From Deferrisomatales bacterium (lineage in GTDB: Bacteria; Desulfobacterota; Deferrisomatia; Deferrisomatales; JACRMM01), in contig JAWSUI010000003.1 in NCBI GenBank assembly GCA_033551855.1, positions 1 to 64,000 on the forward strand: 64,000 bases of DNA, given 5' to 3'. The position numbers and the translations under genes are program-made. Positions 2,824-45,700 of the stretch are shown here, one piece after another; the stretch's first letter is position 1, and every line of letters starts with the position of its first letter. The notes under the pieces are model-generated. The model searched no databases, had not been told where the DNA came from, and worked only from the letters and a program-made list of their open reading frames with translations.

Positions 2824-3807
2824 TTACCGGGGCCGGAGCCGATAGGGTTCCCCAAACTCGAGGGACGAGCCGTTCGCCGGCGCGTTCTCCAGAAGCTCCA
2901 GCGCGGCCAGAAGGACGCTCTTCTGCCGCTCCGCATCTCCCGGGGCGCCGAGCGGCCGCCCCACCGGATGCCGGGTCAGGAGGACGCGCGGCAAAGACAT
3001 CTCCCGTGCCACCTTCTCGAACGCCTTGACGTAGACCGCAACGGTCGGAATTCCGGCCTCTTCCGCGACCCGGGCGACGTGTCCCACGGACACGTGGCAG
3101 ACCGGTCAGACGGGCACCAGCAGGAGAGCCTCCACCTTCTCCTCCTGGATCCGCGCGACCCAGGCGGGGGCGCTCTCCTTCAGGAGCCGGAGCTGGGAGC
3201 AGGCGCCCACGAAGGAGTACGAGGTCGGCGCCAGCTCGCCGATGGCTCCTTCGCCTTCGAGCTCCCGGAGCCGATCCAGCGCGAAGACCACGTTGGGGTC
3301 GGTCTGGGCCGCCCGCACTTCGTAGCCCCCGTGCCGGACGCACAGCGAAGCGGACGGCGTGCCGGAGGGGATGGCGCACAGGTCCGGGGGCGCCTTGAGG
3401 AACTCCATGATGCGCCGGGTCGCCTCCTCCTGCGTCATGCCCTTCACCCCGAAGGGCTCCGGGTCGGCTCCCTCGGCGAAGTGGCCGCTCGAGGTGAGCA
3501 GGGCCAGCCGGCACTCCCGTACGGGCTTCGCCAAAGGAGTGAACGGGCCCCTGTCATAGGCCCACTTTCCGGCCCCTTCGTGCCCGTAGGCCCGGGCCTG
3601 CCACTCGTAGGCGTGCTGCACCAGGCGGTCGGCGTCGCCGTCGTCGATGGTCTGTCCGAGCTTGTCCAGGAGGGAGCGGAAGAACTCCCCCGCCTCCTCG
3701 GCAGGGAGGTTCTTCAGGAACTTGAATGCGAGGTCGCCCCGGGTGCCGTAGAAGAACGAGTCCTTGAATTCCTCGAGGGATTCGGGGGCCGGCTGGGTAT
3801 CGGTCAT
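2824..3807 (-). CDS. Glycine/sarcosine/betaine/proline reductase selenoprotein B family protein (Sec at UGA 3106-3108)
   Basis: ORFs 3106..3807 and 2824..3093 are in frame; readthrough gives LLVPV-U-PVCHVSVGHVARVAEEAGIPTV (UxxC); family motifs ALLTSSG and DPNVVF.LDRLREL. Confidence 0.9.
3077..3095 (-). promoter_or_regulatory. SECIS-like hairpin
   Basis: ACGUGUCC-GUG-GGACACGU, perfect 8-bp stem starting at nt 11 after UGA. Confidence 0.75.
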
Positions 3808-3942
3808 GGCTGTCCTCCGGGCGGGAGCCTTGTAGGGGCGACCGTCGGGACGTGGGCTCCTGGAACCGGGCCGTCATCTTCCACCGACGCCCAGAACCGT
3901 GACGGGACGCTCCCGATGCTCCGGGCTGCGCCTACACGCGAA

Positions 3943-3985
3943 ATTTTATCCGCCCCGCGCAAGCCGTGTTGTAGCACCGGCTACA
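3943..3985 (-). promoter_or_regulatory. Crp/Fnr (NtcA-like) box with class II-spaced -10 element
   Basis: TGTAGC-ACCG-GCTACA at 3970-3985; TAAAAT on the minus strand exactly 22 nt after TAC. Confidence 0.7.
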
Positions 3986-4265
3986 CGCCCGAGTCTCTCG
4001 CAGAATTTGGGGAGGTCGGCACCGTGACGGTCGATGCGGGGCGGGGCGGCACGGGGTTGCGCGGGCGACTCGCCCCCCATCCCCTCCCTATGCGCCGCGT
4101 CCGCCGTGCAACCCGTTCGATTTTGTGCTCCAATCGCGGGATAGGCCGCCTGCCGGGCTCAGGCGGCGGCGCAGGAGACGCAACCGACGGCCCCGGGAGG
4201 GCATCCTCGCGGAGGTCGCAGCGGCGGAGCGGGGAAGGGGCCCGATGCCGCAACCCGAACCTAGG

Positions 4266-5351
4266 CTACGCCAGCGTCGGGTAATCTGTGTACCCGCGTT
4301 CGTCGCCACCGTAGAACGTGCTCGGGTCGGGGGCGTTGCAGGGCCCGTTGCGCTCGAGCCGTGCCGGCAGGTCGGGATTTGCCAGGAAGAGCGCTCCGAA
4401 GCTCACGAAGTCCGCCCGCTCTTCCGCCAGCACGGCTTCCGCTCGTGCCCGCGTGTAGGCGCCGTTTGCCATGTAGGGGCTGCCGAAGCCGGACTTCAGG
4501 GCGCGGTAGTCGAAGGCTTGCGGCACCACGCCGTCCGGGCCCACGCTGGCCTCGACCACGTGCAGGTAGGCGAGCCCGAAGGAGCGCAATGCCGCGGCCG
4601 CGTAGCCGAACGTGGCCGCCGGATCGGAGTCGGCCATCGAGTTGAAGGCGTTGAGCGGGCTGAGACGGACGCCCACCCGGCCCGGCTCCCACGCCCCGCA
4701 CACCGCCTCGGTCACCTCCAGGAGGAACCGGGCTCGGTTTGCCACGGAGCCACCATAGGCGTCCGTGCGGCGGTTGGTGCCGTCGCGCAGGAACTGGTCG
4801 ATCAGGTAACCGTTGGCGGCGTGGATCTCCACGCCGTCGAACCCTGCTGCCCGGGCGTTCGCCGCCCCCCGGGCAAAACATTCGACGACCACTGGGATCT
4901 CCGTGGTCTCCAACGCCCGCGGCGTGAGGAACGGCTTCACTCCCTCGTAGGTCATCACCTCGCCGGCAGGGGCGACGGCGCTGGGGGCCACCGGCAGCGC
5001 CCCGCCTGGCTGGAGGGCCGGGTGGGAGATGCGCCCCGCGTGCCACAACTGAAGGAAGATCCTTCCGTCCGCCGCGTGGACGGCCTCCGTCACCTGCCGC
5101 CACCCCGCCACCTGCTCGGAGGTGTGGATGCCGGGGGTGTTCGGGTAGCCGACCCCGGTTTCGCTCACCTGGGTCGCCTCGGTGACGAGCAGCCCGGCGG
5201 AGGCGCGCTGGGCATAGTAGGTGGCGGTCATGGGTTGGACCACGTTGCCGGGCCCGGCGCGGTTGCGGGTCATGGGAGCGAGGACGACCCGGTTGCGCAA
5301 GCGGTGAGGCCCGAGTTGAAAGGGAGCAAAGAGCAAGGACCCTGCTGAGAT
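4266..5351 (-). CDS. Old Yellow Enzyme alkene reductase (NemA-like)
   Basis: NRVVLAPMTR, GFDGVEIHAANGYLIDQFL, FYGG..RGYTDYP; start uncertain (ATC 5351 after AAGGAG, or TTG 5336). Confidence 0.92.
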   Translation of the reverse strand: MSAGSLLFAPFQLGPHRLRNRVVLAPMTRNRAGPGNVVQPMTATYYAQRASAGLLVTEATQVSETGVGYPNTPGIHTSEQVAGWRQVTEAVHAADGRIFLQLWHAGRISHPALQPGGALPVAPSAVAPAGEVMTYEGVKPFLTPRALETTEIPVVVECFARGAANARAAGFDGVEIHAANGYLIDQFLRDGTNRRTDAYGGSVANRARFLLEVTEAVCGAWEPGRVGVRLSPLNAFNSMADSDPAATFGYAAAALRSFGLAYLHVVEASVGPDGVVPQAFDYRALKSGFGSPYMANGAYTRARAEAVLAEERADFVSFGALFLANPDLPARLERNGPCNAPDPSTFYGGDERGYTDYPTLA

Positions 5352-6854: not shown

Positions 6855-7568
6855 TTATCCTTCCTCGGCTAGGTACCAGGTGGCCCCCGTTGCCCCGTGC
6901 ACCCGCGCCGCCGGGTACGAGAGCGTTATGCCATCCTCCGCCACGATCCGGGCCGCGAGTTCGACCTTCTCCCGCCCCGTGGCCAGAAAAAGCGCCCCGC
7001 GCGCTCCCCGGAGAGCGGGAATCGTCAAGGTGATTCGGGGCACGGGCGGCAAGGCGTTTCCCCCCGTCACCGCCGCAGTCCACCGCGTCTCCTCCTCCGA
7101 GACGGGATCGCCGGGAAAGAGCGAAGCGGTGTGGCCGTCGGCTCCCAGGCCCAGGAGAACGAGATCGAACGGGGGAGCAGAGGCGGGCCCGAAGAACGCG
7201 CGCAGGTCCGCTTCCCAGGCGCGCGCCGCCGCTTCGGGAGGCGAGAGCCGGGCAGGCGGCAGGTGGATCTGGATCCGCGGGATCGGCACCCGGTCCAGGA
7301 GCGCCCGGAGGGCGGCGCCCGCGTTGCTGGCGGGATTCGTCAAGGGCACGCAGCGCTCGTCACCCCAAAAGACGTGGGTCTCGGCCCAGGGGAAGGGGCT
7401 CCAGGAGGCCAGCCGCTCATAGACGGGCAAGGGGGTGCTCCCTCCGGAGAGCACCCAGAGGAACCGCCCCCGTGCATGCACGCCGGCCCAAGCCGCTTCG
7501 ACGATGTGGCCGGCGGCGGCCTCGGTCAGGGCGGCGCCGTCGGGGAATCGGCGGACTTCTCCGGTCAC
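6855..7568 (-). CDS. pgl: 6-phosphogluconolactonase
   Basis: LSGGSTP, FWGDERCVP, GLGADGHTASLFP. Confidence 0.93.
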   Translation of the reverse strand: MTGEVRRFPDGAALTEAAAGHIVEAAWAGVHARGRFLWVLSGGSTPLPVYERLASWSPFPWAETHVFWGDERCVPLTNPASNAGAALRALLDRVPIPRIQIHLPPARLSPPEAAARAWEADLRAFFGPASAPPFDLVLLGLGADGHTASLFPGDPVSEEETRWTAAVTGGNALPPVPRITLTIPALRGARGALFLATGREKVELAARIVAEDGITLSYPAARVHGATGATWYLAEEG

Positions 7569-8554
7569 GGCAGCGCCCGAGCCGCGCAGCGGGCGGCGCC
7601 GTACAGAGCGGTCTTGGGGTCGAGGATTACCCGGACCGGCACCTCGGCCAGGAGCCCCGAGAGCCTCCCCTTGGCCCGGAAGGCCTCGAGGAAGCCTCCC
7701 TCTCGGAGCTTGGGGAGCACCTTGGGGGCGATGCCCCCGCCCACGTACACGCCGGCAGTCGCCAGCGCCTTGAGGGCCAGGTTGCCGGCTTCGGCGCCGT
7801 AGGCGCGAAGCCACAGGTCCAGGGCCCGGGCGCAGGGCTCGTCGGTACCCTGGAGCGCCTCGCCGGAGATCACCGAGGACGGGTCCTCGGATTCCATCCG
7901 GGCCCGGACCCTCGGGGTCTCCGAGACCCTACCGGCGGCCGTGAGGAAGCGGTAGACGTTTCGGAGCCCCGGCCCGGACACGACCCGCTCGGCGCTCACC
8001 GCACCGAGCTCGGCGGACAGGAAGCGGAGCAACGCGATCTCGAGATCGCTGGTGGGCGCAAAGCTCGCGTGGCCCCCTTCTGAAGCCACCGGCACCAGCG
8101 CCTCACCGCTTCGGACGAGGAGGGCCTCACCGAGCCCGGTGCCCGCGGCGATCAGAGCCGCGTTGCCGGTGGGGTCCGGTTTCCCCTCCTGGAGGACCTC
8201 CAGGCCCTCGGGCGGCAGCTCGGCGATGCCCAGCGCCGTCGCTACGAGGTCGTTCACGAGGGTCACGGCGGGAAGACCCAGGGCGGCCCCGATCTCCTCG
8301 GCCGCGACGCCCCACGGGAGGTTCGGCGTCATGGCCCGGCCGTCGCGCACCGGCCCCGCGATGCCCAGGCACGCGGCGCCGACGGAGCCGGCGTCGTCTC
8401 CCAGGAACCCGCTCAGGAGGGAGGCCGCGCTCGCGAATCCGGCGCTGGGGACCGCCGCCTCCCGAATGGCAACGAGCCCCCCGGACACCTCGCGAAACAG
8501 GGCCAGGTTCGCCTTGGTGCCGCCGATGTCGGCGGCCAGGAGCAAGGGCCTCAC
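7565..8554 (-). CDS. glk: Glucokinase
   Basis: ADIGGTK, GTGLGEA, SEGGH, GGGIAPK. Confidence 0.93.
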   Translation of the reverse strand: MRPLLLAADIGGTKANLALFREVSGGLVAIREAAVPSAGFASAASLLSGFLGDDAGSVGAACLGIAGPVRDGRAMTPNLPWGVAAEEIGAALGLPAVTLVNDLVATALGIAELPPEGLEVLQEGKPDPTGNAALIAAGTGLGEALLVRSGEALVPVASEGGHASFAPTSDLEIALLRFLSAELGAVSAERVVSGPGLRNVYRFLTAAGRVSETPRVRARMESEDPSSVISGEALQGTDEPCARALDLWLRAYGAEAGNLALKALATAGVYVGGGIAPKVLPKLREGGFLEAFRAKGRLSGLLAEVPVRVILDPKTALYGAARCAARALP

Positions 8555-8852: not shown

Positions 8853-9917
8853 CTACACGCGGCAATAGAGCCGGTCTTCCTCGTCGCCTACCGTGGGTTT
8901 CCAGGCCTCGAGATCGAGGGTGGACCGCACGCCTACCTGGGGGAGCTCTTCGGCCAGCCACTGTCCGGCCTTCTCCCGGCCGCGGTCCCGCAGCCCCGTG
9001 AGAAACGTCCACTCGGTGTCGTGCTTGGAGTGGGGGCCGAGCCCTTCCAGCGCCTCCTCGGCCGCGATGCGGTGGAGAAAGGTGCACTCGTAGCGGGGGT
9101 CCTGGAGCACGCCTGCCTTCACCAGGCGCCCGATCTCGGCGAGGGTGCGGACCTCGCGCATCAGGCTGGCGTTGAACGCGATCTGGTTGAACCGCTCGGC
9201 GATGTCCTGCGCGGTCTGGGGCAGCTCGCGGCGAAGCGTCGGGTTCACCTGCACGATGACGATGTCCACGGCGCGACAGTGGCTCACCAAGGGCTCGAGC
9301 ACCGGGTTGCCCATGAGGCCGCCGTCCCAGTAGTGCTCTCCGTCGATCGTCACGGCCTGAAAGAGCGTCGGGATGCAGGCCGAGGCCAGGAGGTGCGCGG
9401 CGGAGAGCTGCTCCCGGGTGAAGATGTGCAGGCGGTTGGTGCGCACGTTGGTGGCGGAGATGTAGAGCTTCACGCACCGGCAGGCGCGCAGGCGCGCGAA
9501 GTCGATGGTCTGCGCCAAGACCTCGCGCAGGGGATTCAGGTCGAAGGGGTTGAGCTGGTAGGGCGAGGCCCACTGGGAGATCCACTCGTACCAGAGGGCG
9601 AGGGGGGACCAACGGGTCCCGAAAGGATGGAACGGGGTGAAGGGGCCGGACCGGTAGGGGCTGAACGCGCCCCGCTCGCTCATGGCCCGCCAGAAGCGCT
9701 CCAGGGCGTCCCGCGCCCCGGCACGGCCCCCCTTCTCCATGCCGTCGGCAAGCACTGCGGCGTTGATGGCCCCGGCACTCGTGCCGCTGATCCCCTCGAT
9801 GACCACCCGATCGTCCTCCAGCAGCCGGTCCAGGACGCCCCAGGTGAACGCGCCGTGGGACCCTCCCCCCTGGAGGGCCAGGTTGATCGGCTTCGGTGTG
9901 GTCGCGGTCTCACCCAC
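8853..9917 (-). CDS. Patatin-like phospholipase
   Basis: QGGGSHG, GTSAG, DGG motifs. Confidence 0.9.
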   Translation of the reverse strand: MGETATTPKPINLALQGGGSHGAFTWGVLDRLLEDDRVVIEGISGTSAGAINAAVLADGMEKGGRAGARDALERFWRAMSERGAFSPYRSGPFTPFHPFGTRWSPLALWYEWISQWASPYQLNPFDLNPLREVLAQTIDFARLRACRCVKLYISATNVRTNRLHIFTREQLSAAHLLASACIPTLFQAVTIDGEHYWDGGLMGNPVLEPLVSHCRAVDIVIVQVNPTLRRELPQTAQDIAERFNQIAFNASLMREVRTLAEIGRLVKAGVLQDPRYECTFLHRIAAEEALEGLGPHSKHDTEWTFLTGLRDRGREKAGQWLAEELPQVGVRSTLDLEAWKPTVGDEEDRLYCRV

Positions 9918-9982
9918 GAATTTCTCCTCTGCCCCGCGAAGGGTGCCTCCCGCCAGCCTCGGCTGCCGCCGGTTCGCGCCCT

Positions 9983-11551
9983 TCAGGGGTTGCGCCACGC
10001 CCGTTCGTCCTCGGCCAGGAGCGCATCCGCCGCCACCGGGCCCCACGACCCGGCGGCGTAGGGGTGCACGCCGCAACCGGTGCCGCAGCGCTCGCCCTCA
10101 CCGGAGGTGTGGAGCACGGGGTCCAGGATCGACCAGGCCGCCTCCACCCCGTCGCTGCGCACGAAGAGGGTCTGGTCGCCCGCCATGGCATCGAGGAGGA
10201 GTCTCTCGTACGCCTCCGGGGGGTCGCCGCCGAAGATCTGGCGGTAGTCCAGGTGCAGGGTCAGGGAGCCCAGGCAGACCTTGGCCCCGGGCTTCTTGGC
10301 CTCGATGGTGAGGCTGATCCCCTCGGAGGGCTGCACGTTCAGGACCAGCACGTTGGGGGCTAGGTGGTTCGCGCCCAGGGCGCTGAAGATCGAGTGGGGG
10401 ACCGGCTTGAAGGTCACGGCGATCTCGCTCAGCTTCCTCCCCAGACGCTTGCCCGAGCGCAGGTAGAAGGGGACGCCGGACCACCGCCAGTTGTCCAGGG
10501 CGAGCTTCATGGCCACGTAGGTCTCGGTGCGGGAGCCGGGCGCCACCCCGGACTCCTCCCGGTAGCCGGGCACGGCCTTGCTACCCAGGGTGCCCGGGCC
10601 GTACTGCCCCCGCACGATCCAGCGGTCGAGCTCCTCGGGAGCATCGGGAAAGGGCCGCAGCGCCCGCAGGAGCTTGACCTTCTCGTCCCGGTACCGGTCG
10701 GCCTCGAACGCGGCCGGCGGCTCCATGGCCACCAGGGCCAGCATCTGGAGCATGTGGTTCTGGAACATGTCGCGCAGGCAGCCGGCCTGGTCGTAGTACC
10801 CGGCGCGGTGCTCCACCCCCACGGTCTCGGCCGCCGTGATCTGCACGTGGTCCACGTGGTCGCGGTTCCACACCGGCTCGAAGAGCGCATTGGCGAACCG
10901 CAGCATGAGGATGTTCTGGACCGTCTCCTTGCCCAGGTAGTGGTCGATCCGGTAGATCTGGCGCTCGCGGAGCCTGGCACGCAGGCTCTCGCTCAAGGCC
11001 CGCGCGCTGGCCAGGTCCCGCCCGAAAGGCTTCTCCACCACGACCCGCGCCCAGCGGGCGCCGTCTTCGGCTTCCTCGTGGAGCCCCGCTGCGGCCAGTT
11101 GCGCCACGATCGGCTCGTGGAGCGAAGGCGGCACGGCCAGGTAAAAGAGAACACGGCCTCCCGTGCCGAGGGTCTCGGCGAGCTCCGCGAGCCGGCGCCC
11201 GAGGGCCTCGTAGAGCCCGGGATCCCCGTACTCCCCGGGCTGATAGAAGCAGCGCTTCTCGAAGGAGGAGACGGCCTCGGCCGGCGGCGCCGGCCGGCCC
11301 GCGGCAAGGCTACGGCCCACCGCTTCCCGGAAGGCCTCGTCGGTGGTTGGGCTGTCACCGTACGAGAGGCAGCCGAGGACGAAGAAGTCCGCCGGCAGGA
11401 GATCTCGCTGGAAAAGGCGGAAGAGCGAGGGCAGGAGCTTGCGGTGGGCGAGGTCGCCGGACCCGCCGAAGATGACCACGCCGCAGGGCTCGGGCCGGCT
11501 CTCGAGACAGAACTCCTCCCGCACGGCCACTCGGGTCTCCAGGGCGTCCAC
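9983..11551 (-). CDS. zwf: Glucose-6-phosphate 1-dehydrogenase
   Basis: [21 protein letters not shown]. Confidence 0.96.
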
Positions 11552-33005: not shown

Positions 33006-33032
33006 GGTCGCGCGCAGCCCGGAAATCTTACG
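33006..33032 (-). promoter_or_regulatory. Candidate ECF sigma promoter
   Basis: CGTAAG-N16-CGACC. Confidence 0.5.
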
Positions 33033-33882: not shown

Positions 33883-33899
33883 CGGCCCCTACGGGGCCG
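33883..33899 (-). promoter_or_regulatory. SECIS-like hairpin
   Basis: CGGCCCC-GUA-GGGGCCG starting at nt 14 after UGA 33913-33915. Confidence 0.7.
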
Positions 33900-35301: not shown

Positions 35302-37614
35302 CTACTTCGGATGCGGCGAGAAGATCGCGTTGTCGTGGTAGAGATGGTCGAACTGGTAAAAGATCTGCCCGGCGGCCCGGGGCGCCTCGATCGTCACGTC
35401 GCGCGACGCCCCGCCGAACACCGGCGCGCCGTGGGCATAGGTCCGATCGACCCAGAAACCCTGCGCTGGATCGTCCGGATCGATGTAGAGCGAGCCGTTG
35501 GCCGGGTTGAGGTGGAGAAACGGCTTGAACGCCGGCACCGGCGGGATGATGTCGCCGCCTTCCGGGTTGGGGTTGCGCAGGAACGGCGGGAAGAAGAGCA
35601 CGTCAGGCACGCCGTCGCCGTCGGTGTCGATGTTCTTCATGCCGAGGGGATGAAAGCCGCTCAGATCGACTCCGCATGGTGAACCGGCGGGAAAATCATC
35701 CAGTGTGCACATGCGGGCGATTCCGAACCCTTCCGTCGTACTGCCGATGAGCAGCCCGGGTGTCTCGTCTCCTTCCCGGAGGGGATGAGCGCTGGGCTCG
35801 GCCACGCTGCCGATGACGAAGGGCGGCGGGTTGAAGCGAAAATCGCCGCCGCGATGGACCTCGGAATACTGGTAGCCGAACCGCTCGTCACCCGCGCCGT
35901 CGAAGAAGGCCGCAAGCTCGACTTGATCGATGTCGCGGGAGAAGACGTCGGGCTGCTGGATGACGTCGAAGCCCGGGCGGAAACCCCAGCCGGCCCGCCA
36001 CTGCATCTCGGCGACCTTGGGCGCTCCGTAGATCGGCTTGAAGTCGAAGATCTCGAAGCTGCTGCCGGCCGAGCTGCCCACGTCGCTGCCGCCGGCGATG
36101 AAGTCCGTCAGCCGCGGTCCGAAGTCCACCACGCGGTAGTAGTGCGTGTTGCTGTCCAGGTTGATCACCTTGACCCGCAACCAGTCGCCCTGGCCGAAGG
36201 TTTCGATATCCCCGGCGCCAACGGGGCCGTCGCCGTACATCTTCTGGTTGAGGAAGACGCTCACGTAATCATAGGGGCCGAAGTCGTCCGGCGCCAGGGC
36301 GTCCTCGGCGGTCAGAACGTCCCAGGCCTCGGGAGGTAGTTGCAGGTGATTCGCGGCCAGGCCCACCCACTCATCCCACGTGCCGCGCGGCTCCACGGCC
36401 TCTTCGCTGAGCATGGCCAGAACCTCGGCGGGCGGCGCACCGCCCTCGAGCACGGCCTGGGCGACGACATACATCTTCTTCTCCGGGGCGGCGTCGCCGA
36501 TGTCGTCGATGGTCAGCTCTCGATGGCGCTCGGCGAAGCTGCGTCCCTCGGGATCGAGCTCGGTCTCGCCGGTGTGGACGTTGACGATCTCGAAGACCGG
36601 CTGCAGGAATTGGGATTTGGGCGGATGGGCGCGCCAGCCCCAGGTGTAGATGCCGCCGACATGGGCAATGGGCGGATGATCGACGGTGATTTCGGCAACC
36701 GTACCGTCTACGACCGTCTCCCAGGTGGTATCGAAGGCCTTGAAGCCCAAGGGCGCGCTGCCGGGGCGGGCGTGATCCATCATCATGGTGATGGGCGCGA
36801 ACTCCTCGCGTTCTTCGGCATAGATGCGGTAACGGATGCGCAGCAGGTCATTGGGGTGCGCCGCCACCGGCACGACGATCAGGAACGTGTCGGAATCGAA
36901 CCCGTCGTCGTACCAGAGCTGGTTCACGGTCACTTCCCAGATGGTGCGCTCTTGTCCGTCGATGCTCACGGCGGTATCGCCGCTGTCGCGCAGCCGCTTC
37001 ATCTTGTACTCACCGGGAACGTGGTCGTCCACGAAGTCGCCCCGGTTGTAGTTGAGCATGGCGAAGCCGTCGTAGATGCGGCCTTGCGTGGTACCGAGCA
37101 GAATATCGCGCAGCTCCGCGGCTGCGGCCTCCATGGCCTCCTGCACGCCGTTGTCTGCCGCCGTCTCGAGAGCGCTCAGCGCCTGCTCCATGTCGTCGTT
37201 GGGGCTCGACACCTGGGTGATTTCGTGCCCCGTCAGGCTTTGCGCGCCCACGGCATCTTGCACGAACCTCTCGGCAATCAGTGCCTGATTGCCGTTCCCA
37301 TCGATCTGCAGGGTGTTGGGGATCAGGACCTGCTGCCCCGAGAGCTCGGACAGCACCGGCTCGACGATGAAGGCGTTGAGGGGTTGCTGCGCCGGGTCGT
37401 TGGGGTCGGGAACGGGGAGCGCGACGGGCTCGTCAGGAGGCGGAGGATCGGTCACGGGCGGATCGACCACGTCCCCGTTTTCGCCGTTGCCGGGCAGTTC
37501 GCCGTCGATCGGCGGGCCCTCGACCAAGCTCGGGCCGCTCGAGCCGGAACAACCGGCCAGCGCGAACAGCAGCGCCAGGCCAAGGACGAGCGCGCAGGGA
37601 ACGAACTTTTTCAT
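35302..37614 (-). CDS. Large acidic lipoprotein of unknown function
   Basis: GAGGAG RBS, lipobox LAGC, about 770 aa, Asp/Glu/Pro-rich. Confidence 0.85.
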   Translation of the reverse strand: MKKFVPCALVLGLALLFALAGCSGSSGPSLVEGPPIDGELPGNGENGDVVDPPVTDPPPPDEPVALPVPDPNDPAQQPLNAFIVEPVLSELSGQQVLIPNTLQIDGNGNQALIAERFVQDAVGAQSLTGHEITQVSSPNDDMEQALSALETAADNGVQEAMEAAAAELRDILLGTTQGRIYDGFAMLNYNRGDFVDDHVPGEYKMKRLRDSGDTAVSIDGQERTIWEVTVNQLWYDDGFDSDTFLIVVPVAAHPNDLLRIRYRIYAEEREEFAPITMMMDHARPGSAPLGFKAFDTTWETVVDGTVAEITVDHPPIAHVGGIYTWGWRAHPPKSQFLQPVFEIVNVHTGETELDPEGRSFAERHRELTIDDIGDAAPEKKMYVVAQAVLEGGAPPAEVLAMLSEEAVEPRGTWDEWVGLAANHLQLPPEAWDVLTAEDALAPDDFGPYDYVSVFLNQKMYGDGPVGAGDIETFGQGDWLRVKVINLDSNTHYYRVVDFGPRLTDFIAGGSDVGSSAGSSFEIFDFKPIYGAPKVAEMQWRAGWGFRPGFDVIQQPDVFSRDIDQVELAAFFDGAGDERFGYQYSEVHRGGDFRFNPPPFVIGSVAEPSAHPLREGDETPGLLIGSTTEGFGIARMCTLDDFPAGSPCGVDLSGFHPLGMKNIDTDGDGVPDVLFFPPFLRNPNPEGGDIIPPVPAFKPFLHLNPANGSLYIDPDDPAQGFWVDRTYAHGAPVFGGASRDVTIEAPRAAGQIFYQFDHLYHDNAIFSPHPK

Positions 37615-38016
37615 GGCTCTCTCCTCGGGTGATATTTCCACCCCGTATCGCGTGGGCGCCGGGTTGCAGGGCGCGGACAACGTAACCAGGCTTCACGTTT
37701 TCTCCCCGAGCCCGGCAACGAATCCTGGTGGGTCCGCTTCGCTCGAACCACCCTACGGCCTACGACCGCCGTGCACAGTTTGGGGCTCGGCCGGGGGTCT
37801 CGTACGGAGGCGGCGCAGGCGGCTTTGGCGATGCCCTCCGCCTCCTTTGCACGACCGTCACGGGCCCGCTACACCGTCACGGGATCTTGCGCCGCCGGAG
37901 GACAGGCCCCCGGGTCGGTCTGAGGCGTCTCCTTGGTCGTTGCGGAATGGAAATCCTTTCACCGCGTCTCTCCTGGGGTTGCCGTGTCGCGCGCCGTGCG
38001 CGCCTCGGCCCTCCGG

Positions 38017-38673
38017 TCACGGGACGCTGCGCAGGTCCCTGAGCACGGCCAGGGTCTCGGCCGGGTCGGGCCGCACGGTGTAGTCGGGGCTCGCGGCGGC
38101 GTAGCGGATGATGCCGTCGGTGCCGATCACGAAACGGGCCGGGATCGGGAGCGTCCAAGAGTCGTCTCCGTTGTACAGGGGCAGGCGGATGCCGAACCCC
38201 TCGTATACGGCTCTCAGGTCGGCCGGCATGGTGTACACCAGGCCGTACCGTGCGGCCACGCCGTTTCCCCGGTCGCTCAGGACCGGGAACCCCAGCCCCG
38301 CCTGGCGCTCGATGGATTCGTTGCGCCGCTCGGTCTGGGGGGAGACGGCCACCAGGCTCGCCCCGAGCCCGCGGATCTCTTCGAGGACCTCCTGCAGAGC
38401 CTCCAGCTCTGTCTTGCAGTAGGGTCACCAGTTGCCCCGGTAGAAGGTGAGGACCAGGGGTCCCCGGGCCACGAGGTCCCGGGAGCTCACCGGCGTGCCG
38501 TGGGCGTCGGGCAGCTCGAAGGCGGGGGCCTCGTCGCCGACCTTCTTCGCCCCCTCCGCGATCCCCGACCGAAGGAGCTCCTCCGTGGCCCGCCGGGCCA
38601 CGGCCGCCGCCTCCGGCGGCATCATGGCCGCGGACTGCGCCTTCAGGGCGTCCAGCTTCTCTTGCAGCTTCAT
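38017..38673 (-). CDS. Peroxiredoxin-like AhpC/TSA selenoprotein (Sec at UGA 38425-38427)
   Basis: In-frame join gives LTFYRGNW-U-PYCKTELEALQ...VAVSPQ...LPIPARFVI (UxxC). Confidence 0.9.
38395..38411 (-). promoter_or_regulatory. SECIS-like hairpin
   Basis: CAGAGC-UGGAG-GCUCUG starting at nt 14 after UGA. Confidence 0.65.
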
Positions 38674-38736: not shown

Positions 38737-40224
38737 CTACGGTTCATTCGCCGGCTGCCCGCTCTCGGGCGGAGTGCAGGCGCGGCCCTTGAGGTGAAAG
38801 AGGAACTTCAGCACGCCTTTGGTGCGGTCGCTGAAGAGCTTTTCCGAGAAGTAGCTGCCGGCGGCCCGCTTGGAGATCTCGGAGAGCGTCGGGTAGACGT
38901 GGATCGCGCCCGCGAGAGCCGAGAGCTTCACGCCCCCGGCCACCGTGGCGATCCACTCGTGGATGAGCTCGCCGGCGTGGGCGCCGATGATCTGGCACCC
39001 CAGGATCTTGCCCTTGCCGTCCACCAGCACCTTGATCTTGCCCAGGGGCTCGCCCTCGGCCAGGGCCCGGTCGTTGCCGGCGAACTCCTCGGTGAGCACC
39101 CGGTAGGCCACTCCCTCCTTCTGCGCTCTCTTCTCGTTGAGCCCCACGCTGGCCACCTCGGGGTCGGTGTAGGTGCACCAGGGGACCTTGGCGTAGTCGG
39201 CCTTGCGGGGCAGGCGAAGGACGATGTTTGTGAGCGCGATGCCCCCTTCGTACCCGGCCACGTGGGTGAAGGGGAACTGGCCGTTGACGTCCCCGCAGGC
39301 GTAGATGTGCTTGACGTTGGTGCGCAGCCGCGCGTCGGTGGGGATGCCCCGGGGCGAGAACTCCACGCCCGCCGCCTCCAGCCCCAGGTCCTCCACGTTG
39401 GGCCGGCGCCCGGTGGCCACGAGGAGCGCCTCGGCATCAAGGACGCGCACCTCGCCCCCGCCCTCGGCCGGAACGACGGTGAGCCGCACGCCATCGCCCC
39501 GGCGCTCGGCCTTCACCGCCTTGGTGCCGGTGAGGATCTCCATCCCCTCGGCCTCGAGGCGCTGCCGCAGGATCGCGGCGACGTCGGCGTCCTCCGGCCC
39601 CAGGATCTGATCCAGAAACTCCACCACGGTCACCCGGGAGCCGAGGCGCTGGAAGGCCTGGGCCAGCTCCAGGCCGATGGGGCCGCCTCCGAGGACCAGG
39701 AGCCGGGGGGGCAGCACGGTCTGGGAAAAGACCGTCTCGTTGGTCCAGTGGGGGGTCTCGGCGAGCCCCTCCACCGGGGGCAGCGCAGGCCGCGACCCCG
39801 TGGCGATCACCCAACTGCGGGCCGTTACCCGCTGGCCGTCCACCTCCACCGCGTGATCGTCCACGAACCGGGGCGCCCCGAAGCGCACCTCGGCACCCAG
39901 GCCGCAGAACCGCTCCGGGGAGTCGTGCTCCTGGATCGTCTCGATGACCGAGCGCACCCGCGCCATCACCGCCCCCAGGTCCACGGGGGAAAGCTCGAGG
40001 CGCGGCAGCCCGAACTCGGCGGCCCGCCGCGCCTGGGCCCACACCCCGGCAGTGCGGATCAGGGTCTTGGAGGGCACGCACCCGGTGTGGAGGCAGTCGC
40101 CCCCGAGCTGGGGCGCCTTCTCGATGAGGAGCGCCTTGGCGCCGAACTGGGCGGCACCCGCGGCCACCGTGAGGCCGGCGGCCCCGCCCCCGAGGATGCC
40201 CACGTCGTAATCGTAGTCTGCCAT
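38737..40224 (-). CDS. FAD-dependent pyridine nucleotide-disulfide oxidoreductase (MerA/LpdA-like)
   Basis: GGGAAG, GGDCLHTGCVPSK, GGGPIG, HVYPTLSE. Confidence 0.92.
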   Translation of the reverse strand: MADYDYDVGILGGGAAGLTVAAGAAQFGAKALLIEKAPQLGGDCLHTGCVPSKTLIRTAGVWAQARRAAEFGLPRLELSPVDLGAVMARVRSVIETIQEHDSPERFCGLGAEVRFGAPRFVDDHAVEVDGQRVTARSWVIATGSRPALPPVEGLAETPHWTNETVFSQTVLPPRLLVLGGGPIGLELAQAFQRLGSRVTVVEFLDQILGPEDADVAAILRQRLEAEGMEILTGTKAVKAERRGDGVRLTVVPAEGGGEVRVLDAEALLVATGRRPNVEDLGLEAAGVEFSPRGIPTDARLRTNVKHIYACGDVNGQFPFTHVAGYEGGIALTNIVLRLPRKADYAKVPWCTYTDPEVASVGLNEKRAQKEGVAYRVLTEEFAGNDRALAEGEPLGKIKVLVDGKGKILGCQIIGAHAGELIHEWIATVAGGVKLSALAGAIHVYPTLSEISKRAAGSYFSEKLFSDRTKGVLKFLFHLKGRACTPPESGQPANEP

Positions 40225-40296: not shown

Positions 40297-40323
40297 AGTC
40301 GCCCGTTCGGAGCGGCCCTTACA
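40297..40323 (-). promoter_or_regulatory. Candidate ECF sigma promoter
   Basis: TGTAAG-N16-CGACT. Confidence 0.55.
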
Positions 40324-40353: not shown

Positions 40354-40423
40354 AAGATACCCGGCTTCGGCCGGTCCGGCTGTAGCCGTCGCTACAGCGC
40401 AGCCCCGCTTGGCCATCTATCTT
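40354..40423. promoter_or_regulatory. Bidirectional Crp/Fnr class II promoter
   Basis: TGTAGC-CGTC-GCTACA at 40381-40396 with TATCTT exactly 22 nt after TAC on both strands. Confidence 0.75.
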
Positions 40424-40458: not shown

Positions 40459-41205
40459 ATGACGGCAACCCCCCGGCGCGTCCCCGATGACCCCTGCGGG
40501 GTACCGACCTCCCCGCTGCCGCTGGCCGCCGGGTCTCCCGTGCCCGGGGAGGGCGGCGACCTGACCGGCGAGACGCTTTCCGTCGGAGAGGTCCGTTCCA
40601 GGCGCCGCCCCGCGGGCGAGATCCTCCTCCGGGAAGGGGCCCCCGCGGCGAGCCTGTTTCTCCTCCTGGAGGGCTGCGTCTGCCTGTACCGCCGCAGCCC
40701 GAGTGGAAGGCCCGCCGTCGCGGGCTTCTGCCGGCCGGGGGATGTGGTCGGCGAGGCAATGCTCCTGGGCCTGCGCACGTCACAGGTGACGGCCGTGTGC
40801 CTGGAGCCCTGTGTCACGCAAGAGCTGTCCGCCGCCGCCCTGGAGGCTCTGGTGGCAGAGCGCCCGTCGCTGGGATGGGCGCTCCTTCGCCGCCTGGCGG
40901 GCCAGACGCACCGGATGGCCGAGCGGATCGCCGCCCTCTCGGAGCCGGCGCTGGCCGAGCGCACCCATGCGGTCCTCACCAACGCCGCCCGAACCGTGGG
41001 CCGGCCCCACCCGGAGGGGTGGGCGTTGGGGACCACCTTTTCGCACGAGGAGATCGGCCGTCTGGCCGGGGCCCACCGGGTGAGCGTCACCCGGGCCCTT
41101 GCCCGGCTTCGTTCGGCCGGCAGGATCCGCACAGAACGCCGCAGCATCGTGGTCGTCCAGGAAGGAAGGAACCTGCCCGGGGACGAGACGGTAGAAAGGG
41201 GCTAG
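40459..41205 (+). CDS. Crp/Fnr family regulator (paralog of 28017..28736)
   Basis: SHEEIGRLAGAHRVSVTRAL; cNMP-fold. Confidence 0.88.
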   Translation: MTATPRRVPDDPCGVPTSPLPLAAGSPVPGEGGDLTGETLSVGEVRSRRRPAGEILLREGAPAASLFLLLEGCVCLYRRSPSGRPAVAGFCRPGDVVGEAMLLGLRTSQVTAVCLEPCVTQELSAAALEALVAERPSLGWALLRRLAGQTHRMAERIAALSEPALAERTHAVLTNAARTVGRPHPEGWALGTTFSHEEIGRLAGAHRVSVTRALARLRSAGRIRTERRSIVVVQEGRNLPGDETVERG

Positions 41206-41208: not shown

Positions 41209-41838
41209 GTGCCTGCGAGAGGAGACGCAGCAGGAAGGACGCCGTTCCGAGCGGCACCGGCGAGACCTCCACAGAAACCCGGCTCCCGCGGTGCGGCCTG
41301 GGTCGCAGACCACGCAGACGCCCTCTTCCGCTACGCGTCGAGCCGGGTCGGAGATCGGGAAACCGCCCTGGACCTGGTGCAGCAGTCTCTCGCCGCGGCC
41401 CTGGCCTCCGCCACGGCGTACCGCGGGGCGGCGGCCCCCCGGACGTGGCTGATCGGCATCCTGCGCCACAAGATCGCCGACCACTTTCGCGACCGATCGA
41501 GGATGGCGGGGAGCCTGGATGCTTCCGACGAAGGCGCGTGGTTCGACGGCTCCGGGCGCTGGCGGGCCTCGGCGGGGGAGCCCGGGCCAGGGCCGGCGGC
41601 CCAACTGGACCGGAGCGCGTTCCGGCAGGCGCTTTCCGAGTGCCTGCGGAACCTGCCGCCGCGGCAGGCGAGCGCCTTCGTCCTCCGGGAGATGGAGGGG
41701 ATCCCGACCCCGGAGCTGTCCGCCCTGCTCGGCACCACCCCAGACAACCTCTGGGTTCTTCTGCACCGGGCTCGGCTGGCTCTGCGCTCACAGCTCGCGC
41801 GCAGGGGGTTCGGCGCCGGGGATCTCTCGGGGCAATGA
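41209..41838 (+). CDS. ECF sigma-70 factor
   Basis: ALDLVQ, TWLIGILRHKIAD, VLLHRARLALR. Confidence 0.9.
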   Translation: MPARGDAAGRTPFRAAPARPPQKPGSRGAAWVADHADALFRYASSRVGDRETALDLVQQSLAAALASATAYRGAAAPRTWLIGILRHKIADHFRDRSRMAGSLDASDEGAWFDGSGRWRASAGEPGPGPAAQLDRSAFRQALSECLRNLPPRQASAFVLREMEGIPTPELSALLGTTPDNLWVLLHRARLALRSQLARRGFGAGDLSGQ

Positions 41839-41869: not shown

Positions 41870-42075
41870 TCATCCGTTCAGGCCCCAGTCGTAGGCCGCA
41901 TACGCCACCGCCAGGCGGTCCCCTTCCGTCTCGAGGAAGGCGCGCTTTCCCGGATCGAGCAGATGCCGGCGGACGAAGTCGAGCACCCCGGCACGGCCCC
42001 CGAAATCCGCCTGGTACCACTCGAAGATGCGCGACAACCTCACGACGTCCTCCCTGCGTGGGGCGAGACCCTCGG
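41870..42075 (-). pseudogene. C-terminal fragment of a DUF547 protein
   Basis: LSRIFEWYQADFGG...YDWGLN; N-terminal part absent. Confidence 0.7.
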
Positions 42076-42084: not shown

Positions 42085-43002
42085 TCAGGGCTCGGGCGAG
42101 AACCGCTCGGTCCCCGGGTGAATTCCCTTCCAGACGAACCAGTACGTCACGGTGGGGACGAGCTCGGTGCCGTCCCCGATGCGGGCGGTCAGGCGGTCCG
42201 TCTCGGGCTCGTGGCGCAGGGTCACGGTCTGCCCGTCCAGATGGTCGCGCACCTCGCCCCTGCGCCGGAGCTCCGCCACCGGGTAGGCCTTGGTGCGCCC
42301 GTTCCACTCCACTCCCGCCACAAGCTCCTTCTCCTCCTCCCCGGGGCCCGGAGCGAAGCGCGAGAACAAGCCGCGGCGGCTGCGGTAGTAGTCCTCGTAG
42401 GGGTCCTTGTCGTAGTCGCGAACGTGCCCGGTCTCGAGGCTCAGTACGGCGGTCTCCGGATGCCGACGGCGCCACTTTTCCCACGTGGTGACCGTGGACC
42501 CCAGTGCCCGCAGCCGGGTCCCGGTGCGGGGTCCCGTCACCGCCTCGCGCTTCACCTGCGACCAAAGGGACTCGGTCTGGTGGTCGTACATCAAGACATT
42601 GGAGTTCCACAAGAGCCCCGAGACGCCGAACGTATAGGTCTGGTCCCCGATCTCCCGGGCGTACACGACGCCCGCAAAGGACAGCGGTCACCAGCTCACC
42701 AGGGCCGGCACACCCCCCACCCGGTCGTTGACCAGCTCGTGCCAGGAGAGGATTCGAATCGGGTAGGCCCGAGCCTCGCCCCGGTGGACAAACCCGAGGA
42801 CGCGGTCGTCCGGCTTCAGGAACCCGGCTTCCGCTGCCGGGACGAACTTCGGGTCGAGCAGCGCCGGGATGCCGTCCCGGGGCGGCCCGCCGGAGAGGAT
42901 CTCCTCCAGGGGGATGCTGTGGCGGCTCAGGTCCCAGGCAGCGGCGGGAGCAGCGACCGCCAGGGCGGCGAGGACGGCGAGGGCGGCGGCGATTCGGGTC
43001 AT
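42085..43002 (-). CDS. DUF3179 family exported selenoprotein (Sec at UGA 42688-42690)
   Basis: SGGPPRDGIPAL, HELVND, LVSW-U-PLSFAG, SGLLWNSN, DHQTESLWSQ; two ORFs in frame. Confidence 0.85.
42656..42674 (-). promoter_or_regulatory. SECIS-like hairpin
   Basis: CGGGCGU-CGUGU-ACGCCCG starting at nt 14 after UGA. Confidence 0.7.
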
Positions 43003-43025: not shown

Positions 43026-43052
43026 AGTCGCCGGTTCGGCCGAAACCTTACA
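43026..43052 (-). promoter_or_regulatory. Candidate ECF sigma promoter
   Basis: TGTAAG-N16-CGACT just upstream of the RBS. Confidence 0.55.
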
Positions 43053-43121: not shown

Positions 43122-43604
43122 CTACTTCAGCGGCCCGATGAACAGATAGTCGTTGTCCGCCACTCGAGAATGGCAGCCCAGGCACATGCCCTCCTTGCCC
43201 TCCTCGTCCACCTTCCCATCGGGGGCGTACTTGGCCCAGAACCAGTCGCCCCCGGCCGGGTTGTAGCCCTGCACCTTGTACATGACGGTGACGGCCGCGA
43301 GCGTCTTGTCGGGCATGTAGTTCTCCTTCACCACGATGGCACCCGCCGGCATGGTGCCCTTCTTGCCCTCGATGGCACCCAGCGCCGCGCCGTTCACGTA
43401 GGTCGTCAGCAGCACCCCGTGGGGCTCCGTGCCCGGGTAGAGGGCGCTCTTTCCCGGCCACATCTTCCAGGACGTGTAGTTTTCGGCCTTGAGGTGCTTC
43501 CAGAGGGCGGCGCCCGAAGCCTCGGGGCCGGCCCAGGCGGCCGAGCCCGCGGCCAGCACGCCTGCACACAGGGAAACCGTGAGCCACGCCAGTCTTCTCT
43601 TCAT
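43122..43604 (-). CDS. Cytochrome P460-family monoheme cytochrome c
   Basis: Signal peptide, IVVKENY, VMYK, GDWFWAKY, C-terminal CLGCH. Confidence 0.85.
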   Translation of the reverse strand: MKRRLAWLTVSLCAGVLAAGSAAWAGPEASGAALWKHLKAENYTSWKMWPGKSALYPGTEPHGVLLTTYVNGAALGAIEGKKGTMPAGAIVVKENYMPDKTLAAVTVMYKVQGYNPAGGDWFWAKYAPDGKVDEEGKEGMCLGCHSRVADNDYLFIGPLK

Positions 43605-43723
43605 GGGCTGCTCCTTTCCCGGGGCCATCGCCCCGGCGGTTGTGGGCCTTCGGCCCGAGAACGAATACCACAGTCTCGGGATTCGTCGAGTCCCGCGGCT
43701 GTGAATGGCGAGCGACACGCGAC

Positions 43724-44598
43724 TCAGGACGCCGCCTCCCGGTGGTCGTGAGGAATGAGGCCCGCCGAGAGCCCCGGGCGCGTCAGGCCGCCCCCGTCGA
43801 GCCACGCGCCGGTGGACTCCCGGGCCCGCCCCATCAGCTCTGCAGTGCGGGTGAAGTCGTAGGAGGAGACGTCGAGGGGGCACAGGGACGGCACGACGAA
43901 CACCTCGGTGCGGGACGCGGCCCATGCCACGTCGCGGACGAGCTGGTGGGCGATCAGCAGGTTGAGGGCGTGGAGCGCGATGGCCAGGACGTCGTGCGGG
44001 GGGTGGGGCGCGGCACAGGTGAAGCCCGTCGGCAGCACGATGACCCGGCCCGCTCCCGCGTCCACGGCCGCGTGGATTGGCGTGTTGCTGGCGATTCCCC
44101 CGTCCATCAGGTCGTGGATCCCGATGCGCACGGGCGGAAACAGCCGGGAATAGCCGCGCTGGCCAGGAGGGCGTCGGCCGCGGACCCGGACGTGAGCCGG
44201 ACCTCCGTTCCACCCAGCAGGTCGGTGGCGATGACCGTGCACGGGATCGTCGCGTCTTCGAGGCGGCGCAACGGCAGGGCGCCTGCGATCAGTCTGCGCA
44301 GAGAACCGGGGTCGAGCAGGGCGTCCCGGCCGAACAGGAACCGGTACAGAGCCCGCAGACGCGCCAGGGGAAACACGTCTTCGCGCCGAACCCGGGCCCA
44401 CACGGCCTTGAGCCGCTGCACGCCGGCCAAGGTGGGCTCGGCCGCGAAATGGGCCGCGCTGAGGGCGCCCACGGAGGACCCGACCACCAGGCCGGCTCCG
44501 ACGCCGTGCTCCAGCAGCACCTGGAGCATGCCCACCTGCACGGCTCCGAGGCTGCCTCCCCCGGCCAGGACGAACGCGGTCTTCGTGGGTATGGACAA
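43724..44598 (-). pseudogene. Patatin-like phospholipase with a frameshift near 44144
   Basis: GGGSLG and GSSVG in one frame, LFPPV...DGG in another. Confidence 0.8.
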
Positions 44599-44822
44599 GG
44601 GCGACTCCCGTAAGACCGGTGATCTACGCGCCGGCGCGCAGGGCGCACCCGGGCGCTTCCGGCACCGCATCTGCCAAGTAGTCGCACGGCGAACCCATTC
44701 GTTTCACCGAACGCCAGGCGCGCGGAAGGGAGTCGGCCGGAGACCGAGAACCGGGAGAACGAAGCCGGGGGGGGAAGCGAAGGAAAACAGGGGGAGACGC
44801 CCGCGGCGCGGGGCGAAGGCTC

Positions 44823-45086
44823 TCAGCTCCCCTCGGAGGCGAGTGTCCGCAGGAGCGCGTCCTTTTCCTCGGGGGTCAGGCCGAGAACCTCTCCGGCCTC
44901 AGGATGCAGGAGCCGGCCGAGCTCCTCGCGCAGGAGCGCGCGCAGCGACAGGAGCTGCCGTCGGTACTCCGAGCAGCGGGGGCACATCCCCAGGTGCAGC
45001 GCCAGAGGCAGCCGCTCCAGGATCTTCAGGGGGGCGTCCAGGCTCTTCGAGACCAATTGGGCCGCCTCGCGGCACCGGAGCATCAT
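44823..45086 (-). CDS. zf-HC2 anti-sigma factor
   Basis: MLRCRE...HLGMCPRC; overlaps the sigma stop codon. Confidence 0.88.
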   Translation of the reverse strand: MMLRCREAAQLVSKSLDAPLKILERLPLALHLGMCPRCSEYRRQLLSLRALLREELGRLLHPEAGEVLGLTPEEKDALLRTLASEGS

Positions 45087-45700
45087 GGGGTCTCCTTTCC
45101 TCCCCCGAACCCGCTCCGCTCGAGACACGCCCGCAGGGCCAGGCGCGCCCGGTGGAGCAGGACCCAGATATTCGTCGGGGTGGTCGCGAATTCCTTGCAG
45201 AGCTCTTCCGTGGAGAGCCCTTCCAACTCCCGCAGCACGAAGAGACTGGCCCGCCGCGGAGAAAGCCGGCGCAGGCAGAGTTGCAATGCCTGCCGAAATC
45301 GTTTCCGGTCGAGTGCGTCGCCGGGGTCGAAGGGCCAGGGTCCAGGGGGCACCCGCCACCGGCCGCCGCCGTCAAAGAGGTCCTCCTCGGGGTCTGCCGC
45401 CGAGGCTTCCGGGGTCTGCGCGGCGCGCCGGAAGTGGTCGGCGATCTTGTGGCGTAGCACGCCGATCAGCCAGGTCCTCGGGCTCGAGCGCCCCTCGAAG
45501 CCGGCGCCCTTCACGAGGGCCAAGAACGTCTCCTGGACGACGTCGCGTGCGGTCTCCCGGTCCCCCACCCGCGAGAGCGCATAACGGAACAAATCATCTG
45601 CGTGCTCCGCCACCCAGCGCGCCACGTCGGTCCCGCTTGCCGGCTCCACCCTTGCAAGCGCCCCGGATTCCGGGGCGGCCGTCTCCCTTCCATCATCCAT
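45083..45700 (-). CDS. ECF sigma-70 factor
   Basis: DVVQETF, TWLIGVLRHKIAD, VLLHRARLALRACL. Confidence 0.92.
   Translation of the reverse strand: MDDGRETAAPESGALARVEPASGTDVARWVAEHADDLFRYALSRVGDRETARDVVQETFLALVKGAGFEGRSSPRTWLIGVLRHKIADHFRRAAQTPEASAADPEEDLFDGGGRWRVPPGPWPFDPGDALDRKRFRQALQLCLRRLSPRRASLFVLRELEGLSTEELCKEFATTPTNIWVLLHRARLALRACLERSGFGGGKETP

Follow-up and report, generated by a model that had tools for sequence, protein, structure and literature searches.

The window analysed here is a stretch of 64,000 nucleotides, the first 64 kb of contig C3 (JAWSUI010000003.1) in the genome of a Deferrisomatales bacterium (4.24 Mb, 70% GC, 132 contigs, 100% complete by markers). Between positions 2824 and 45649 it holds an island in which genes for glucose release and for the pentose phosphate pathway (PPP) are interleaved with redox genes, including four selenoprotein genes, among them arsS, which codes for an enzyme of the radical S-adenosylmethionine (SAM) class. 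Genes were called with a codon model and assigned to families by Pfam and NCBIfam scans; scores are written as score/cut-off. An initial annotation, made from the sequence alone, had listed these genes and placed almost all of them on one strand. Every gene that it named is present, and 36 of the 38 features lie on the minus strand, to which the positions below refer unless a plus sign is given. The genes form several tightly packed blocks with gaps of 160-750 bp between blocks. All the parts are known or annotated families, and a literature search, with subscription journals and supplements outside it, found no published description of the combination or of the operon.

One block consists of pgl (6-phosphogluconolactonase, 6855..7568; TIGR01198), glk (glucokinase, 7565..8545; TIGR00749), zwf (9983..11551), gnd of the short TIGR00872 type (11555..12463) and a gene for a 728-residue fusion of a GH63 glycosidase with DUF547 (12481..14667). 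Another comprises rpiA (15234..15977), a HAD sugar phosphatase/beta-PGM-like gene (15974..16720), a transaldolase/phosphoglucose isomerase fusion, tal-pgi (16717..19521; NF007080), and the transketolase gene tkt (19518..21638). All seven PPP and glk genes score above their NCBIfam cut-offs. Further on lie a glycogen debranching enzyme with GDE_N and GDE_C domains (25927..28020), a second GH63-like glycosidase of 941 residues (29683..32508) and a glucose 1-dehydrogenase-like SDR (33057..33863; NF006493 298/420, below cut-off). The two GH63-like genes match PF22422 with 348.8 and 68.9 bits, the lower value belonging to the 941-residue enzyme.

The redox genes comprise arsS (33886..34893) with its AhpD-like partner (34901..35233; CxxC), a Prx-like selenoprotein (38017..38673; UxxC), a flavin disulfide reductase of the Lpd/MerA-like type (38737..40224), a DUF3179 selenoprotein with a signal-peptide-like N-terminus (42085..43002) and a GrdB/PrdB-like selenoprotein (2824..3807; UxxC), together with a glutaredoxin-thioredoxin reductase fusion, Grx-TrxB (23983..25206), a TlpA/ResA-like thioredoxin-fold protein (21799..22332; CxxC), a TVP38/VTT membrane protein (25220..25930) and an MIP aquaporin-family channel with two NPA motifs (23123..23986). 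The reductase, Grx-TrxB, TVP38, MIP and debranching-enzyme assignments are Pfam-level matches. The reductase has its redox CxxxxC in 37/37 homologs and a C-terminal Cys in 33/37. DUF547 had been counted three times; two copies are intact, the fused one and a stand-alone gene with a signal-peptide-like N-terminus (28868..29686), and the third (41870..42043) is only a remnant, matching residues 189-245 (57 residues) of the intact 245-residue copy in a same-genus genome.

The four UGA-interrupted redox genes of the initial annotation are borne out. In-frame TGA codons at 3106-3108 (GrdB/PrdB-like), 33913-33915 (ArsS), 38425-38427 (Prx-like) and 42688-42690 (DUF3179) are sited where the family models continue, and 3' of each is a SECIS-like hairpin whose loop has a G close to its beginning, as in selD, a comparison made with no shuffle control. 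Elsewhere in the genome, beyond the window, selA, selB and selD score above their cut-offs and two tRNA-Sec genes were called (C4:73340-73437 and C8:65254-65343), and the features that mark bacterial selenoproteins, namely UGA at a Cys-equivalent site, a downstream hairpin and selABCD in the genome, are therefore all present. Across the fetched loci the Sec position of ArsS is TGA in 39 homologs and Cys in 11; the Prx-like TGA is kept in one locus (L192) and that of DUF3179 in two (L056, L185). The GrdB/PrdB-like protein falls below its family cut-offs (110.5/300 for the PrdB model, and 51.7/65.45). Prx-like, DUF3179, TIGR04167, GrdB and PrdB proteins are listed as selenoprotein families in the accessible portion of a 2026 review (PMC13188914). 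A paralogous block at C9:73900-87700 holds copies of the GrdB-like selenoprotein gene (92%, with TGA) and of a 308-residue unknown protein (93%), a GH15-DUF547 fusion of 895 residues, two high-scoring promoter-like sites and a palindrome, with a mer-like cluster adjoining at about 68-72 kb. At L055:17926-18942, in G009, an Nterm_to_SelD-like oxidoreductase (254/310) follows the flavin reductase, which hints at a selenium link.

ArsS scores 357.7 against TIGR04167, or 367.6 when Sec is counted (cut-off 300), and carries CxxxCxxC, DUF3641 and the C-terminal Sec/Cys; its partner matches TIGR04169 (199.1/120). A structure prediction of ArsS with a dimer of the AhpD-like partner gave 0.52, compared with 0.23 for the best control; the runs agreed in at least 82% of contacts, and the partner had a pLDDT of at least 85. 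The score mark is reached by 116 of 157 solved pairs and two of 215 mismatched ones, only 18 of the solved pairs and both mismatches lying at 0.60 or below, and the prediction gives weak support to binding of ArsS to the AhpD-like dimer. At the level of the family, ArsS adenosylates DMAs(III), according to the accessible text of PMC13598754 (further background on ArsS chemistry is in what is accessible of PMC12159101).

Neither arsM nor a TIGR04282 or TIGR04283 glycosyltransferase was found by scans of the window, in agreement with the initial annotation. The wider search for arsM found none above cut-off in the genome; the best match (121.5/263), at C79:3424-4407, is a long ArsM-like methyltransferase without two of the usual cysteines. 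A match this strong occurs in 20/20 relatives of the order, and in most of those fetched the copy sits after miaB and a small conserved gene; it is probably not an arsenic enzyme. A TIGR04283-like gene lies on C10 (168.6/182), and TIGR04282-like pieces, split by contig ends, lie at the ends of C12 and C105.

The GH63-DUF547 architecture is common to all 120 matches listed of 483. Its structural model (pLDDT 83.9) has the (alpha/alpha)6 fold with the catalytic Asp/Glu and matches GH63 glycerate-glycoside hydrolases; against 2z07 the barrel is the same (Z 48.8, rmsd 1.9 Å over 367 residues). D39, D176 and E413 are invariant, and the catalytic and most substrate-binding residues are kept, as judged from the accessible part of the reference on the Mycolicibacterium hassiacum enzyme, MhGgH (PMC6608630). 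In the fusion family an invariant Met111 takes the place of Gln115 of MhGgH, which may mean a different substrate, and the score against NF047898 is below cut-off (396.6/550). We predict from the fold and active site that the GH63 enzyme is of the alpha-glucoside type. The CxxxxC motif of DUF547 is kept in fused and stand-alone forms; a single-sequence model of the latter reached a pLDDT of 40, matches to the GH63 domain took up the fold searches made with the model of the fusion, and atlas look-ups with DUF547 gave only DUF547 clusters. Six fusion loci, mostly Nitrospirota-labelled (L085, L090, L108, L111, L118 and L121), combine reductase/TVP38, GH63-DUF547 and a long ArsM-like gene and have no arsS; GH15-DUF547 is also found in two of them, and the ArsM-like protein is cysteine-complete in L085 and L108.

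The island had been expected to make NADPH. By the usual cofactor rules for such reductases and for TrxB, the window's reductase has an acidic, NADH-type residue at the matching site and its TrxB has no basic motif of the usual kind. The zwf product reads GCLSYGD, without the 2'-phosphate-binding Arg in the beta2-alpha2 loop that marks NADP use (accessible part of PMC8546961), and is predicted to be NAD-type or relaxed; that of gnd reads YDL, with Asp where NADP enzymes have Asn-Arg-Thr (accessible part of PMC8900737), and is predicted to be NAD-type. The NAD(H)-type fingerprints of zwf, gnd and the reductase thus argue against NADPH as the product of this copy. In the operons of Desulfobacteraceae type, zwf, gnd and reductase all show NADP(H) signs. 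The gnd and reductase fingerprints agree in 19/19 rows (13 NADP/NADPH and 6 NAD/NADH; one row is a duplicate and L089 was assigned by visual inspection), and zwf divides in the same way. Such a joint switch is suggestive, although not proof, of coupling between the PPP and the reductase.

The island ends with an extracytoplasmic function (ECF) sigma factor gene (45083..45649; TIGR02943 133.1/162.2), directly followed by the gene for a zinc-associated anti-sigma (ZAS) factor (44823..45086; NF052368 61.7/50) with C5 and H31-x3-C35-x2-C38, the Cys/His spacing of Neisseria MseR. The motif GTAAG-N16/17-CGAC occurs three times in the window, each time upstream of a block (0.37 expected; three were reached by 1 of 100 shuffles), making up 3 of the 11 matches in the genome. 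Of the 34 motif matches at other loci, 10 are in the sense orientation and 20-330 bp upstream of a core gene (0.9 expected; 1 antisense). With a matrix built from ten foreign sites, 5 of the genome's top 10 sites fall in the island (0.10 expected), preceding the hydrolase block, the reductase, the arsS block, the tkt block and the anti-sigma gene. Candidate promoters are at 33007..33031 (GTAAG-N16-CGAC, the genome's best site, 21.5 bits), at 37936..37960 upstream of orphan-ahpD-arsS-gdh (18.6 bits), at 22382..22406 upstream of tlpA and the tkt block (17.9 bits), at 40298..40322 upstream of the reductase and at 43027..43051 upstream of DUF3179, with a further internal one near 45198 in the sigma gene. 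The motif resembles the consensus of Neisseria sigma-E, whose regulon includes msrAB (accessible text of PMC2893595), and the anti-sigma family is found in 12 of 21 genomes of the order. A scan of 28500-46000 for sigma-70 promoters and terminators gave nothing above shuffles.

Other regulators are a Crp/Fnr-family protein with N-terminal cysteines (28017..28775), a second one (40540..41205, plus) and a second ECF sigma factor whose start is uncertain (41281..41838, plus). The palindrome TGTAGC-N4-GCTACA, a candidate Crp/Fnr-family site with no assigned strand, is found at three places in the genome, ahead of each of the two GrdB-like genes (3970..3985 in the window) and between the reductase and the Crp gene (40381..40396). 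Palindrome-like sites are also present at L013:8315, L163:5965 and L163:6868, the two in L163 flanking a Crp homolog.

Within the order, arsS is present in 18/20 relatives. Seventeen own-order arsS loci were fetched (G017 was left out), and their constant unit is ahpD-arsS or arsS alone. In G004 a GH15 glycosidase and Grx-TrxB lie beside arsS, with a PPP cluster 12-33 kb off; in the same genome (L052, G004:C61:131-151 kb) the PPP cluster near arsS is apparently split by an inserted restriction-modification block. The GH63 model matches 4/20 relatives at E<=1e-12, never close to arsS. Several relatives have reductase-TVP38-DUF547 as a small module of its own, which adjoins gnd in G019; the reductase alone adjoins gnd in G013 and G015. 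A single contig of G008 carries TVP38, P460, rpiA, GH63-DUF547, gnd, zwf and glk. In the same-genus genome G001, reductase-ahpD-arsS-TVP38-lgt forms a compact unit (DNA identity about 91%), and the blocks that split it up in the window are missing. From this compact unit and the lgt remnant in the window it follows that the 43-kb arrangement is a lineage-specific, accreted mosaic, and the earlier view of the island as one conserved unit is not supported.

Wider sampling shows that the linkage of sugar and arsS genes is real. We examined 75 GTDB loci with a full-length or near-full GH63-DUF547 gene (median 11.6 kb; 5 unfused matches were left out). PPP genes or glk lie near the fusion in 31, reductase or TVP38 in 33, and ahpD or arsS in 17; both PPP and ahpD/arsS genes occur in 16, mostly as same-strand operons. 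One of these loci (L127) reads ECF...DUF547-reductase-gnd-GH63-zwf-ahpD-arsS-TVP38-pgl-glk on one strand. Starting from arsS, 123 genomes from the order of G041 contained arsS in 38, zwf in 76 and both in 32; zwf lies within 0.7 kb of arsS in 13 of these 32 (counted from coordinates, seed G041 included), many of the others having the two genes on separate short contigs. In 14 more arsS loci picked for having no adjacent zwf, glk was beside the arsS block in four. A metagenome set of 80 arsS loci comprised 19 close homologs (>=52%) and 61 distant ones, and sugar genes flank five of the close loci. As kin are not independent, these counts show recurrence, not a rate. Oxygen-defence functions mark the flanks of several related operons, where genes occur for SodN, FprA, rubrerythrin, Tpx, a Fur-family regulator, MsrA and MsrB. 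The sugar and arsS/selenoprotein genes thus co-occur in other genomes from whichever side they are approached (16/75; 13/32), and this same-strand co-occurrence, with a candidate ECF promoter before most blocks, upholds the earlier proposal that they are linked and probably co-regulated.

ArsM was considered across the same sets. In the order of G041, 44 of the 123 genomes have an arsM above cut-off, as do 5 of the 13 zwf-arsS genomes, which are therefore not enriched for it; G041 itself gave no ArsM match at E<=1e-20. An ArsM-like gene flanks 0/19 close and 8/61 distant metagenome arsS homologs. The sugar-arsS link is confined to one ArsS subclade and is independent of arsM. Overall, the initial observation is confirmed and its interpretation partly supported.

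We propose, at a probability of roughly 0.5, that the island represents, in enlarged form, a type of operon that recurs elsewhere, a glucose-fuelled, co-regulated module that would supply reducing power under stress and would include ahpD-arsS. The proposal builds on the genes, Sec codons, recurring linkage, matched cofactor fingerprints and promoter-like sites, from which we infer the steps of the mechanism. An oxidant-type stress would free the ECF sigma factor from its zinc anti-sigma, and GTAAG-N16/17-CGAC promoters would turn on most blocks. The debranching enzyme and the two GH63 enzymes would then free glucose, drawing on glycogen and on a small alpha-glucoside; the genome carries glgA, and storage of polyglucose is described for Desulfovibrio gigas (accessible part of PMC4287179). 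Glk-Zwf-Pgl-Gnd would yield NADH here and NADPH in the Desulfobacteraceae version, with Tkt, Tal-Pgi and RpiA recycling pentose. The AhpD-like, Prx-like and GrdB-like proteins would be returned to the reduced state by the cofactor-matched reductase and Grx-TrxB, as might, through TVP38, the exported DUF547, DUF3179 and TlpA proteins. In the least certain step, the AhpD-like protein might hand ArsS an external trivalent methylarsenical, there being no working ArsM, which ArsS would trap onto an adenosyl group. A bolder and rather unlikely version is that a Sec-bearing ArsS subclade works without ArsM in an ECF-controlled, glucose-fuelled stress system of anaerobic Desulfobacterota, where ArsS, the AhpD-like protein and the cofactor-matched reductase would trap environmental methylarsenicals or make a new protective adenosyl compound, and DUF547 would be a two-cysteine redox module that switches on the fused glycosidases (GH63, GH15).

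Several observations weigh against this prediction from sequence. The promoter core was first seen in the window, so the promoter tests are partly circular, and held-out upstream regions rarely score (ahpD 0/33, reductase 1/30, GH63 fusion 0/72). The matrix scan found no promoter-like site upstream of the window's GH63-gnd-zwf-glk-pgl block. Sugar genes are found at only 1/17 own-order arsS loci, that of G004, and at only 1/61 distant metagenome loci, while 24 of the 51 fusion loci of at least 8 kb have no partner at all. In the complete genome G010, some 620 kb separate the GH63 fusion from arsS, and tal-pgi was not found. A small number of genomes that are probably related (L170-L173) supply most of the stress-gene flanks, and the NADP(H) label forms a single clade in both trees (that of the reductase being a quick version), so that the cofactor match amounts to about one independent event. 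Of the genes that could make a GH63 substrate, the genome search covered gpgS and otsA, but not mpgS or treY/treS, and found no gpgS above cut-off and no otsA. Radical SAM enzymes are sensitive to oxygen, a poor fit to induction by oxygen. Neisseria sigma-E is described as unresponsive to oxidative stimuli in the accessible text of PMC2893595.

Among the alternatives, the island could belong to an organoarsenical (arsenosugar-type) biosynthesis cluster, in which PPP reductant keeps dimethylarsenic trivalent, ribose replaces spent SAM, GH63 frees the acceptor and DUF2064/GT2 proteins finish the glycoside. The adenosylation of DMAs(III) by ArsS cited above (PMC13598754) fits this idea, as do the aquaporin in the window, a DUF2064-GT2 fusion after glk in L170, above the TIGR04282 and TIGR04283 cut-offs, DUF2064 homologs in 14 fetched loci, the long ArsM-like gene, cysteine-complete in L085 and L108, beside mostly Nitrospirota GH63-DUF547 in 6/75 loci, and a row in L247 of ArsM-like, arsS, TVP38, reductase, DUF547, GT2, DUF2064, GH15 and tkt. 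We nevertheless consider it doubtful: arsM is not enriched in zwf-arsS genomes, finds no match in G041 and flanks none of the 19 close metagenome loci, the window genome's own ArsM-like gene lacks two cysteines and follows miaB in relatives, and a whole PPP would seem excessive for a trace metabolite. The related operons that hold hydrolase or PPP genes together with TIGR04282/04283 transferases do not bear out the suggestion that hydrolases stand in place of glycosyltransferases. They also tell against a catabolic variant, raised at the outset, in which an arsenosugar or a similar glycoside would be the substrate of the GH63 enzymes and its sugar would be consumed by the PPP. The fusion of GH63 to DUF547, a usual neighbour of ArsS, and the invariant Met in place of Gln115 could be read that way. 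Even so, in its fold and in most residues of the active site the enzyme matches alpha-glucosyl/mannosyl-glycerate hydrolases, arsenosugars are beta-ribosides, and glk and zwf imply glucose as the product, which leaves this variant barely credible.

A looser arrangement would be a general-stress regulon under one ECF sigma factor, its genes co-regulated with no metabolic hand-off from sugar oxidation to ArsS. Stand-alone ahpD-arsS with the motif upstream and no nearby sugar genes in four genomes, three of one genus (G007, G010, G016 and G020), is in keeping with this, as are the spread of the anti-sigma family through the order and the differing gene order among operons. We judge it unlikely: in 13 genomes zwf-ahpD-arsS are adjacent within 0.7 kb, and zwf, gnd and reductase changed their cofactor signs together, both of which suggest that metabolism couples at least the PPP to the reductase, and G020 has the motif although no anti-sigma match was found there. 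Finally, unrelated modules might have piled up by chance at an insertion hot spot, as the compact G001 unit, the four decayed genes counted in the window and the paralogous block on C9 would allow. Since distant lineages also have these gene sets in tight operons and the island is enriched in promoter-like sites, this explanation is highly improbable; recurrence elsewhere largely refutes chance as the cause of the linkage, although it is a fair account of how this 43-kb arrangement arose.

The remaining features of the island are an old-yellow-enzyme flavin oxidoreductase (4266..5300; PF00724), a small cysteine-motif protein (CxxC) at 8613-8804, a patatin-like protein (8853..9998), a small lipoprotein-like protein with CxxC (32675..32842), whose homolog in G012 sits between reductase and DUF547, and a cytochrome P460-family protein (43122..43628). 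A 770-residue lipoprotein-like orphan between the Prx-like gene and ahpD (35302..37614) had no family in Pfam or NCBIfam and no usable look-alike in the atlas look-up. Besides the DUF547 remnant, decayed genes in the island are the broken lgt (22470..22702), a truncated SLOG gene and a patatin gene split across two frames (43724..44598). Beyond the island, 45913-64000 has a core-genome look, with genes for a YoaA helicase, a PHP protein and type II secretion-like and mreBCD-like proteins, judged from translations only.

Descriptions of ArsS present it as an arsenosugar enzyme, but in these anaerobes arsS occurs without adjacent arsM, and the linkage hints that ArsS may have an unstudied role. 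The operon offers a testable physiological setting for ArsS and for its orphan partners TIGR04169, DUF547, TVP38 and the reductase, suggests why many relatives of sulfate reducers retain zwf and gnd, and bears on organoarsenic turnover in sediments. Polyglucose use in sulfate reducers is linked to oxygen.

The known systems closest to the island include the ArsM-ArsS pathway that Cheng et al. reportedly established in 2021 for arsenosugar initiation in Synechocystis, whose usual gene neighbours are TIGR04169, TIGR04282/04283, TVP38, DUF547 and a flavin reductase: ArsS and the AhpD-like protein are above cut-off, and TVP38, DUF547 and the reductase are present. The island differs in that ArsM is absent from the locus and, at cut-off, from the genome, that the locus lacks the transferases, and that its ArsS is of the Sec type and stands together with glycosidases and a complete PPP. 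The GH63 fusion has the barrel, both catalytic acids and most substrate residues of the glucosyl- and mannosylglycerate hydrolases of Thermus thermophilus (2z07/4wvb) and of M. hassiacum (GgH, 5ohc), but carries a C-terminal DUF547 and Met for Gln115, scores below the family cut-off, and comes from a genome where gpgS was not found. As far as the accessible text of PMC2893595 describes Neisseria sigma-E/MseR, the soluble ZAS anti-sigma with its Cys/His spacing and the -35 element (GTAAG) and spacing are alike, and msrA/msrB lie close to some related operons; the -10 core is CGAC here and CGTC there, and the putative regulon is much larger. In D. gigas, too, stored glucose is an internal electron source in an anaerobe, but the accessible part of PMC4287179 describes an Embden-Meyerhof route, whereas here the oxidative PPP is linked to thiol/selenol reductases and ArsS.

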